This document shows, in pieces, positions 15,903 to 17,753 of a stretch of DNA of 64,000 bases. A model generated the notes under the pieces. The model had not been told where the DNA came from. It did no database searches and saw only the letters and a program-made list of their open reading frames with translations. Every line of letters begins with the position of its first letter. The stretch's first letter is position 1. The stretch lies in the NCBI GenBank assembly GCA_010015585.1, contig ML975151.1; one strand, written 5' to 3'. The translations under genes were made by a program, and so were the position numbers. The stretch comes from Eremomyces bilateralis CBS 781.70 (taxonomy: Eukaryota).

Positions 15903-17753
15903 TCACAGGATCAACTGGTTCAGGTTCCGCTGCACGATCATATCCTGGACACTCTGCATCGTCTTCTTCAGTAGATCCGTATCGGTCGCGTTGGTGAGAT
16001 GCACGTAGATCTCCTTCGACTGGCTGCGGACGAGTTTCTTGAACTTGTTCGAGAAGAACTCATGGCCGGCCACGATGTCGTCCGGCTTGCCGTTGAAGTC
16101 CGGGAAATGTTTGCGGATCGGCGACATGCCGGAGGCGATCTTCTCGCGGAAGAGGTCGATTTTGTTAAGGAAGAGGATCATGGCGGAGCGCTCGAAGTAT
16201 TTGGAGTTGACGATGGATTCCCAGAGCATGAGGGCTTCGCTCATTTGGTTCTGCGGAGGTTAGTGGAGAACAATAGAAGGGAGTATATTGTCAGATGACA
16301 ACGGGAGGGGACGGTAAGATAGAAAGGGGAAACCAGGGAGACGTACTCCGCTTCGGTCTTCAATGAGTGCAAGATCGTAGCCGCTGATGGCAACGAGGAA
16401 CAGAACAACCTGCACGTTGTCGAAGCAGTGGATCCATTTCTTGCGCTCAGAACGTTGTCCACCGACGTCGAACATGCGATATGTCAAGTTCCCCAACTGA
16501 AAGATGGTTTCGCTGATAGGGCTGGACACGAATATTCGACTATTCGTATTCGTACGAATATTCGTAGTCGAATACGAATAAAATTTAGAATTTCCGCTTA
16601 CTAATATTCGTACGAATAATATTCGCATTATTCGTAATTATTCGTAATTATTCGTAATTATTCGTCCATCTCTGAAGCTATTTCCATGTATCTCGCATCG
16701 GAGAGATGGTCGACAGAGAGCTTTGAGCTGGGGTCACTTGGCTTGCTGAATCGTCAGGAGTGATCAATTCGACGCTATTGATATGCTTTGTATCTCTTAG
16801 AGCTCAAATCCTCCACATCGTGTTCGGGTAAACAAAAGTCGCGACTGCTGGGCATTCACTCATTGGCTCGGCTTTTGCCGAATAAGTCTTGGCATTATTT
16901 ACGAATATTCGCGAATAATACGAATAAAACGTCTCAAAACTTAGTCGAATACGAATAATCGTTCAAGAGGAAAAGTCGAATACGAATAGCCAAAATCCTT
17001 ATTCGTGTCCAGCCCTATTCGCTGATACCGGTTGTCCGTAGTCGGGTGCGGAGGATGTCTTGATCCGAGGGGAGGTAGTTCGGCGCGAATAGGCGGTCCA
17101 CGTCGTCGAAGAAGCTTGAGGAGAGTCAGATTGTGTTCGGAAGTTCGCTGAGGGTCATGGAGCGGCTCACTAGCTGAGATTGTCATGCAGCGCATACTCG
17201 TTGCCTTTCAGCATCGCCATCTGCACCCCGCGATCGTCCCAGAGCGTGTTGAATGCCACAAGGTATTCCGCCGGCATGCGTTCTTCCGGTCCGATTTCCG
17301 GGTCGCCTTTAATTTTGTTCATATATTCCTAGCCACGTTATCAGCACCTAAATCACCATTGCGCGCGCTATGGTTGGAGGCATACCGTATTTGCTTGGTC
17401 TTCAAACATCTCGTCATGTTCCTCCATCACCAAAAAGATCGTATTGAACGCATTGATCAAATTGTTGAAGATGACCGCGCGCCATTGCTTGCGCTCATTT
17501 CTCGAGAAGCCGCCGGTATGGATGACGCGCATCTGCTTGAGGACGGTGGATTTGCCGCTCTCTCCAGCACCTATACGGTCATATTAGCGCCTTGATCGCG
17601 TATTCGCTGGAAAATCGCCATACCCAACAATAGCAGCTTCACTTCTTTTTCTTGCCGTTTCCGTTCATTTCGAAGGACTTTTTCAATCTCCTCATTTCTC
17701 CGGTGTCCCGGATCCTGAGGTTTTTTTCCAAAGCACATTATTGCAGGAGCCAT
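15903..17753 (-). pseudogene. Heterotrimeric G-protein alpha subunit (fungal group II type), disrupted by a MITE insertion
   Basis: [51 protein letters not shown] and TNATD; no Gly2 (MAPAIMCFG). A TAG from the inserted element directly follows ...TTGISE. Confidence 0.9.
16517..17017. mobile_element. Non-autonomous hAT-type MITE, 501 bp
   Basis: 18-bp perfect TIRs TAGGGCTGGACACGAATA (16517-16534; reverse complement 17000-17017); 8-bp TSD TTCGCTGA at 16509-16516 and 17018-17025; dense subterminal TATTCG/CGAATA motifs; tandem TTCGTAATTA near 16631-16665. Confidence 0.95.

Follow-up and report, generated by a model that had tools for sequence, protein, structure and literature searches.

Our analysis of one strand of a 64,000-nt stretch of contig ML975151.1 (assembly GCA_010015585.1) of Eremomyces bilateralis CBS 781.70, hereafter the window, revealed a G-protein alpha subunit (G-alpha) gene whose fourth exon is interrupted by a 501-bp non-coding element with perfect inverted ends and a flanking 8-bp direct repeat. 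Contigs from DNA runs enter the element from the unique sequence on both sides, contigs from an RNA run do so on transcripts from which the neighbouring introns have been removed, and elements elsewhere that share the same terminal 18 bp adjoin remnants of transposases of the hAT superfamily. We consider it highly probable that a deletion derivative of a hAT transposon inactivates this gene, and propose the following model. A short, internally deleted hAT copy would have inserted by a cut-and-paste mechanism into exon 4 of a G-alpha gene of the group II type, duplicating 8 bp of target where the presumed switch I motif ends (RTRLRTTGISE|TIF). Transcription and the removal of the four normal introns would continue, with the element remaining in the message. 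The element's own TAG would then end translation after residue 185, yielding a product that lacks the G3 and G4 motifs and the remaining GTPase core, and hence a null allele. The element would belong to a family of a hundred or more near-identical copies, for which a form of about 2.5 kb may supply the transposase. The full-length protein in the public databases (P0121) would in turn arise from a gene model that hops over the element by means of two atypically long introns and a micro-exon.

Architecture of the insertion and of the interrupted gene

All sequencing evidence used here consists of contigs, not reads, and contigs lose rare variants. Two DNA runs (X1 and X2) derive from one sample of organism A, and a further run (X3) comes from a different sample and study; a contig was counted as bridging when it extended at least 31 letters past a junction. 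Coordinates of the element, the gene and their parts are collected in the table at the end of this section.

The element stands out from its surroundings by composition, with a GC content of 0.40 against 0.53 in the flanks, and by its ends. Allowing up to three mismatches, the 18-nt end TAGGGCTGGACACGAATA occurs just twice in the window, namely at the two ends of the element, compared with a mean of 0.04 matches in shuffled sequence, where two matches were reached in 0 of 100 shuffles. The flanking direct repeat, TTCGCTGA, can also be read as 10 nt, TTCGCTGATA, because TA stands both at the start of the element and at the start of the sequence that follows the right copy. Contigs of other insertions in X1 and X2 part from the window copy just after position 17017, and one other family copy has an unrelated flank immediately before TAGGGCTGGAC; the boundaries 16517–17017 therefore stand. 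Within them, the hexamer CGAATA and its complement TATTCG are found 25 times: 15 of the occurrences fall within the 150 nt at the left end, 10 within the 151 nt at the right end and none within the middle 200 nt (shuffled element: mean 0.35, maximum 3). None of nine open reading frames (ORFs) tested inside the element matched a Pfam family at E<=10, and what coding capacity can be recognised amounts to at most a weak, 17-residue remnant of a transposase N-terminus (E 1.6e-4 in a database of 501 nt).

The identity of the gene is clear from its public protein model, which matches the Pfam G-alpha family (PF00503) with E 2.2e-118. When the element and one copy of the duplication are removed, the exons form a single open frame of 354 aa. 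As the DNA stands, the minus-strand frame ...DILRTRLRTTGISE runs directly into the TAG after ...RLRTTGISE, so that translation of a spliced mRNA retaining the element is computed to end after residue 185, with loss of the DVGGQ (G3) and NKID (G4) motifs and the remainder of the GTPase core downstream. At the site of insertion, three relatives read RLRTTGISET (P0124, P0126 and P0127) and a fourth RLRTTGITET (P0130). Aligned to a solved G(o) alpha chain, it matches RTRVKTTG-IVE, which we take to be the switch I region. Beyond the break, the last exon is still 77–79% identical to its orthologues. An earlier, sequence-only reading of this DNA had placed perfect inverted ends and an exact duplication at 16517–17017 and 16509–17025, had found that excision together with one copy of the duplication reopens the frame, and had put the stop right after ...TTGISE with loss of G3–G5. 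The window sequence bears out each of these points, and the relatives agree with the restored frame at the site.

To which class of fungal G-alpha does the gene belong? Along its whole length, P0121 shares 60% identity with P0178, which bears the name 'alpha-2 subunit'; among the 120 matches listed, six bear that name and none is named alpha-1 or alpha-3. The protein starts with MCFGKK, without an MGXXXS motif, and ends in ...NLNQLIL, with no cysteine four residues from its end; an N-terminal MGXXXS and a C-terminal CAAX are given as the marks of group I in the available part of PMC13267034. The gene thus resembles the group II type of Neurospora crassa GNA-2, as far as that type is described there, in its G-alpha domain, its alpha-2-named relatives and the absence of group I marks, and differs from it in being interrupted. 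Names and sequence features, as distinct from a tree, support a place in group II, which is also where the sequence-only reading had put it.

A second, related sequence is present on long contigs in the DNA and RNA runs of organism A, with 16 differences over the 93 nt of 16386–16478, and it is the deeper of the two in the RNA run (2142 vs 445). Presumably it represents another G-alpha paralogue of the same genome.

Table. Positions of the element, the interrupted gene and their parts in the window
Feature	Position	Strand	Basis
G-alpha gene (putative group II type): ATG at 17738, stop 15905-15903, five real exons, exon 4 interrupted	15903..17738	-	Pfam, exon reconstruction, RNA introns
Real intron, 96 nt, GTACGT...CAG	16251..16346	-	spliced in RNA (X3 only)
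Real intron, 56 nt, GTGAGC...AAG	17115..17170	-	spliced in RNA
Real intron, 57 nt, GTATGC...TAG, cut ambiguous by 1	17329..17385	-	spliced in RNA
Real intron, 53 nt, GTATGG...TAG, cut ambiguous by 2	17571..17623	-	spliced in RNA
Premature in-frame TAG, the element's first three coding-strand bases	17015..17017	-	ORF 17015-17125, minus strand
4-nt 'micro-exon' CCAA required by the public model	16738..16741	-	reproduces P0121; no support from RNA contigs
Element, 501 bp, non-coding; probable non-autonomous hAT element, apparent internal-deletion (Ds-like) derivative	16517..17017	.	repeats, GC, Pfam null
Target-site duplication, left copy, 8 bp	16509..16516	+	exact direct repeat
Target-site duplication, right copy, 8 bp	17018..17025	+	exact direct repeat
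Left terminal inverted repeat, 18 nt	16517..16534	+	0 mismatches
Right terminal inverted repeat, perfect complement of left	17000..17017	-	0 mismatches
Left subterminal region, 15 CGAATA/TATTCG hexamers and 10-nt tandem ATTATTCGTA (16627-16665)	16517..16666	.	hexamer count, repeat search
Right subterminal region, 10 CGAATA/TATTCG hexamers	16867..17017	.	hexamer count
Apparent internal deletion breakpoint; about 1976 extra bases here in longer family members	16697..16700	.	X4 contig and loose ends

Fate of the element in RNA and the deposited protein

Contigs of X1 and X2 that are anchored in unique flanking sequence run through both junctions without any difference (X1 records 1 and 8; X2 record 16), spanning 15850–16538 once and 16991–17800 twice, and the empty site is absent from all contigs compared. 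X3 shows four CT..AC joints at the introns of the gene (96, 56, 57 and 53 nt) that are not present in the DNA runs, and we identify it as RNA because it alone shows these spliced joints. One of its contigs (record 20, 2276 nt) has three introns removed and reaches position 16988, 30 nt inside the element and 41 nt beyond the donor that the public model requires. In a second contig (record 17, 545 nt), the 96-nt intron is removed and the sequence reaches 16546, likewise 30 nt inside the element and 25 nt beyond the model's last acceptor. Thirty letters are what one expects where a unique path enters a repeat in a graph of 31-letter words. No joint across the element was seen in the X3 contigs. 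Given both junctions in DNA contigs and spliced RNA contigs entering the element, the insertion is real and is retained in the main mRNA. A fair statement is that the element stays in the main mRNA, whose translation ends after residue 185, a rare spliced form being possible beside it. With the element retained, the gene is most likely dead, that is, a null allele. The knock-out announced by the sequence-only reading is supported at the RNA level, and in-frame removal of the element was not seen at the splice junctions of the RNA contigs.

The same contigs bear on the suspicion that a repeat copy was misplaced into the gene during assembly. In its favour, this is a family with very many copies, and repeats are known to be put in the wrong place by short-read assemblers. 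Against such an artefact, contigs rooted in unique flanks enter the element from both sides in two DNA runs, X3, with its separate origin, has both junctions on spliced transcripts, and the exact duplication of 8 bp surrounds the element. We find a misplaced repeat hardly credible, in line with the sequence-only reading, which had treated the insertion as genuine; DNA contigs and an independent RNA run carry both junctions.

How, then, did a full-length protein come to be deposited? P0121 (356 aa; 'guanine nucleotide binding protein, alpha subunit [Eremomyces bilateralis CBS 781.70]') is 100% identical to the C-terminal exon in the window, and it reads RLRTTANPISETIF, i.e., TTANPISE where its relatives have TTGISE. 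No path with a single intron in the window yields this protein, and exactly one path with canonical boundaries does, matching 356 of 356 residues by way of two introns and a 4-nt micro-exon. In this path an exon ending in ...ACAACCG is followed by the donor GTATCA, an acceptor ...GCAAG and the exon CCAA, and then by the donor GTGACC, an acceptor ...GTCCAG and CCCTATCAGCGAA. The two introns measure 287 and 216 nt, against 53–96 nt for the four real introns, and both donors have C at the +5 position, where all four real donors have G. The path also exchanges a glycine for ANP; this glycine aligns with a glycine of G(o) alpha and is kept in all four relatives (P0124, P0126, P0127 and P0130).

It is conceivable that the public model is right for at least part of the mRNA, in which case the element would be on its way to becoming two introns, a 356-aa protein with ANP instead of the switch I glycine would be made, and the gene would be altered, not dead. 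All four boundaries of the required path are canonical GT..AG and the deposited protein is reproduced exactly, the annotators may have had transcript data, and rare isoforms are invisible in contigs. Against it, the RNA contig runs unspliced and without a branch for 41 nt past the proposed donor, no joint in X3 fits either proposed intron, the path demands a 4-nt exon, introns of atypical length and donors without the +5 G, and the exchange of Gly for ANP would strike a switch I motif that is kept in the solved G(o) alpha chain as well as in the four relatives. We regard partial removal of this kind as improbable. Distinctly improbable is the fuller version in which a minority of transcripts remove the element by this path, so that a hAT fragment is becoming introns in a conserved signalling gene while its family is mobile and the partner of about 2.5 kb is expressed. 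Most likely the P0121 model is an artefact of homology-guided gene prediction that kept the frame open.

Simpler splicing escapes were enumerated as well. Seven GT or GC donors combined with 37 downstream AG acceptors give 22 single-intron paths that are in frame and free of stops, two of which use the donor G|GTATCA. The sequence-only reading had held that this cryptic donor (G|GTATC), joined to the nearby AG acceptors, produces only frameshifts; this part goes too far. None of the 22 paths restores the native sequence, and none is seen in X3. That the P0121 record hides the break behind a model with a 4-nt micro-exon was not foreseen there.

Introners, or introner-like elements, are copies of transposons which the cell removes from its transcripts in the manner of introns. 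The present element resembles them in being a small, high-copy element within a coding exon and in being treated as intronic by the public model. It differs in that it is retained in RNA contigs with no joint across it, and in that a 4-nt micro-exon is needed to keep the frame. We did not find introner-like behaviour in the contigs: those with neighbouring introns spliced enter the element from both sides.

Several points weigh against our interpretation of these data. On the RNA side, the contigs extend 30 letters inside the element and 25 beyond the acceptor, which falls below the 31-letter rule, and only the donor, passed by 41 letters, is bridged by that measure. A minor spliced isoform could go unseen in contigs. 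The DNA runs may be the assembly's own reads, which would leave X3 as the sole independent support for the junctions. Apart from these points, two further runs under the same species label (X5 and X6), which contain next to none of the window's words, were left out of the comparison.

hAT membership, family size and longer forms

The elements of the hAT superfamily create 8-bp target duplications and carry the terminal motif YARNG on short inverted repeats, as stated in the available part of PMC3014272. Here the duplication is 8 bp long and both ends, TAGGG, fit YARNG. A scan of metagenome contigs found the exact 18-mer end in 23 loci, and in 21 of them similarity continues past it, over 54–151 nt at 69–92%. 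The remaining two (L008 and L020), which have only the 18-mer in common and may be chance matches, were not accepted as relatives. The Pfam domain Dimer_Tnp_hAT (PF05699) was detected above its cut-off of 21.4 bits in L011 (1.6e-12), between the two ends, and in L018 (1.9e-11), inside an element whose contig stops before the right end. The transposase-like ORFs of L003 and L023 matched no Pfam family at E<=1, and both loci gave strong tblastn matches to hAT proteins of about 740–780 aa. Proteins of this kind, some named from Aspergillus and Penicillium, are also the relatives of the L018 ORF among the 60 matches listed.

Remnants of hAT transposases adjoin the 18-mer end in 14 of the 23 loci and do so in one constant geometry, with the transposase C-terminus by the 'left' end and on the opposite strand. 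L023 covers residues 49–763 of a 763-aa transposase and L003 residues 283–763, and in L004 the N-terminus lies by the 'right' end. From this geometry it follows that, in the window copy, the transposase would read on the minus strand, as does the G-alpha gene. Because of the 8-bp duplication, the YARNG-fitting end, the subterminal hexamers and the hAT transposases beside identical ends in relatives, a non-autonomous hAT element is the supported assignment, and the sequence-only reading had arrived at the same superfamily. Three of the relatives have shrunk by internal deletion to about 740 bp (L011, 287–1026; L018, 1230–1976; L022, 1887–2621), keeping the last 80 or so transposase codons, with residues 20–43 retained in addition in L018; independent deletion derivatives seem to be common in this family.

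Other superfamilies, such as Mutator-like or P/Merlin-like elements, also make duplications of 8–11 bp, and some observations would suit such an origin or otherwise count against hAT membership. L011 (740 bp), the one complete relative, has no 8-bp duplication, with 2 of 8 bases matching; L002 carries an ORF with a MULE domain about 900 nt from the common end and has no hAT remnant; the longer form in the fungus's own genome, a possible autonomous copy, is known by loose ends; and no hAT transposase named from this fungus appears among the 60 matches listed. Set against these are the adjoining hAT transposases in 14 of 23 same-end loci with their constant orientation, the two significant Dimer_Tnp_hAT matches inside elements, the distance of the MULE ORF from the end, in a locus that offers no hAT remnant for comparison, and a duplication of 8 bp next to an end that fits YARNG. 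A non-hAT origin appears very improbable to us. The MULE transposase-domain ORF itself (L002, 839–1201, 1.3e-11) may belong to a neighbouring or nested element.

How large is the family to which the hAT-like copy in the window belongs? Depth summed over the contigs matching the element ranges from 38,000 to 112,000 in X1, where the flanks have about 214, and from 12,500 to 35,800 in X2, with flanks of about 150–163. These sums are some 80–520 times the flanks, and it speaks against too literal a reading that the ratio is a sum over all matched contigs and not a copy number. In X1, 509 contigs could be placed on the element at 80% identity or better, 420 of them at least 99% alike to the window copy, and the flanks differ among the loose ends on the right side of the element. 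We read the summed depth as indicating a family whose near-identical copies number roughly a hundred or more. In the descriptive sense, the element is a MITE (miniature inverted-repeat transposable element), being short, non-coding, abundant and homogeneous, with inverted ends and a duplication.

Longer members of the family exist. Loose ends occur at 16697 and 16700 in X2 and X3, and at 16700 only in X1; a 2310-nt contig from a DNA run of organism B (X4, record 24) has 1976 letters between these two positions. The long form is spelled out in this X4 contig only, with organism A showing the matching loose ends in DNA and RNA; the extra segment of about 2 kb in the fungus's own genome is known from such ends, not from its letters, which weakens the case. 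The window copy has the appearance of an element of about 2.5 kb that has lost its interior, and this longer form, which occurs in DNA as well as RNA, probably supplies the transposase. Its occurrence in RNA is compatible with current activity of the family. Perfect ends and duplication, an otherwise intact gene and family contigs at least 99% alike lend indirect support to a recent insertion. On both counts the sequence-only reading, which had spoken of a very recent event and of an active MITE family, is upheld indirectly, in the latter case by the many near-identical copies and the longer partner.

In X4, pieces of the element cover 16517–16805 with 0–2 differences at a depth of 14–29, below the depth of 47 of organism B's own G-alpha contig. 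The rest of the locus has no close match in this run, where the other cover is a conserved 65-nt G-alpha piece with seven differences. The element in X4 may be carry-over from organism A's abundant repeat or may reflect a true presence of the family in organism B.

Ac/Ds of maize are hAT elements with deletion derivatives. The present element shares with them the 8-bp duplication, short inverted ends of the form Y-A-R-N-G and many subterminal repeats at both ends, and, like Ds, it is a non-autonomous copy that resembles an internal deletion (16697/16700) and that, having inserted into an exon, would create a null allele. Subterminal repeats have a role in hAT elements, according to the portion of PMC4763223 available. 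Unlike Ac/Ds, the present host is a fungus (Dothideomycetes), and the end sequence and the CGAATA hexamer are the element's own; compared with classical Ds, the apparent copy number is far higher and MITE-like, and the element is known from sequence, not from observed mobilisation. Among fungal hAT transposases, those of Aspergillus calidoustus (P0249, 'HAT C-terminal dimerisation domain') and Penicillium spp. (P0255, P0261 and P0271) are 51–77% identical to proteins of the metagenome elements with the same 18-bp end, whereas the window copy has lost nearly all of its coding sequence. In the literature, the 9-mer end TAGGGCTGG returned, among the matches listed, unrelated primers and targets, which are uninformative on novelty; the species name returned no transposon or G-protein paper by title, and the terms hAT, MITE and Dothideomycetes returned, judging from the listing, general transposon surveys of other species.

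Other features of the window and significance

Next to the G-alpha gene, at 13677–14531 (minus strand), lies a gene whose C-terminal domain is of the COX24/mS38 type (3.2e-12). In P0228, a public protein from Cryomyces, this domain is fused to a G-alpha, which suggests a conserved neighbourhood together with a merged gene model in Cryomyces. Further away, an ORF at 60446–61270 (plus strand) contains a DUF3435 domain (5.4e-33) and lies near a run of 175 N at 58326–58500; DUF3435 domains are often associated with fungal mobile elements. Two long ORFs of 468 and 572 aa occupy 26958–29967 (plus strand), the second with PIF1-like helicase domains (6.9e-43), and this 572-aa ORF may be either a cellular PIF1 gene or the helicase of a mobile element.

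What is the relevance of the interrupted G-alpha gene? The event itself is of an ordinary kind and is well documented here, a public gene model is corrected, and our knowledge of how hAT elements or G proteins work is unchanged. The deposited 356-aa G-alpha is most likely not made, and counts of G-alpha proteins or alignments of switch I would absorb the ANP artefact. The case illustrates how homology-guided gene callers can mask transposon insertions with micro-exons.

For the fungus, a dung saprobe according to the available part of PMC7082219, the consequence is that its ex-type strain would lack group II G-alpha function by nature, in a class whose role is described as mainly supportive in PMC13267034, and the strain could be used as a mutant provided that there is an isolate in which the site is empty. 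A hAT family of very many near-identical copies whose longer partner is expressed, if true, would offer a candidate system for endogenous transposon tagging, and may also serve as a population marker in a little-studied order of Dothideomycetes.

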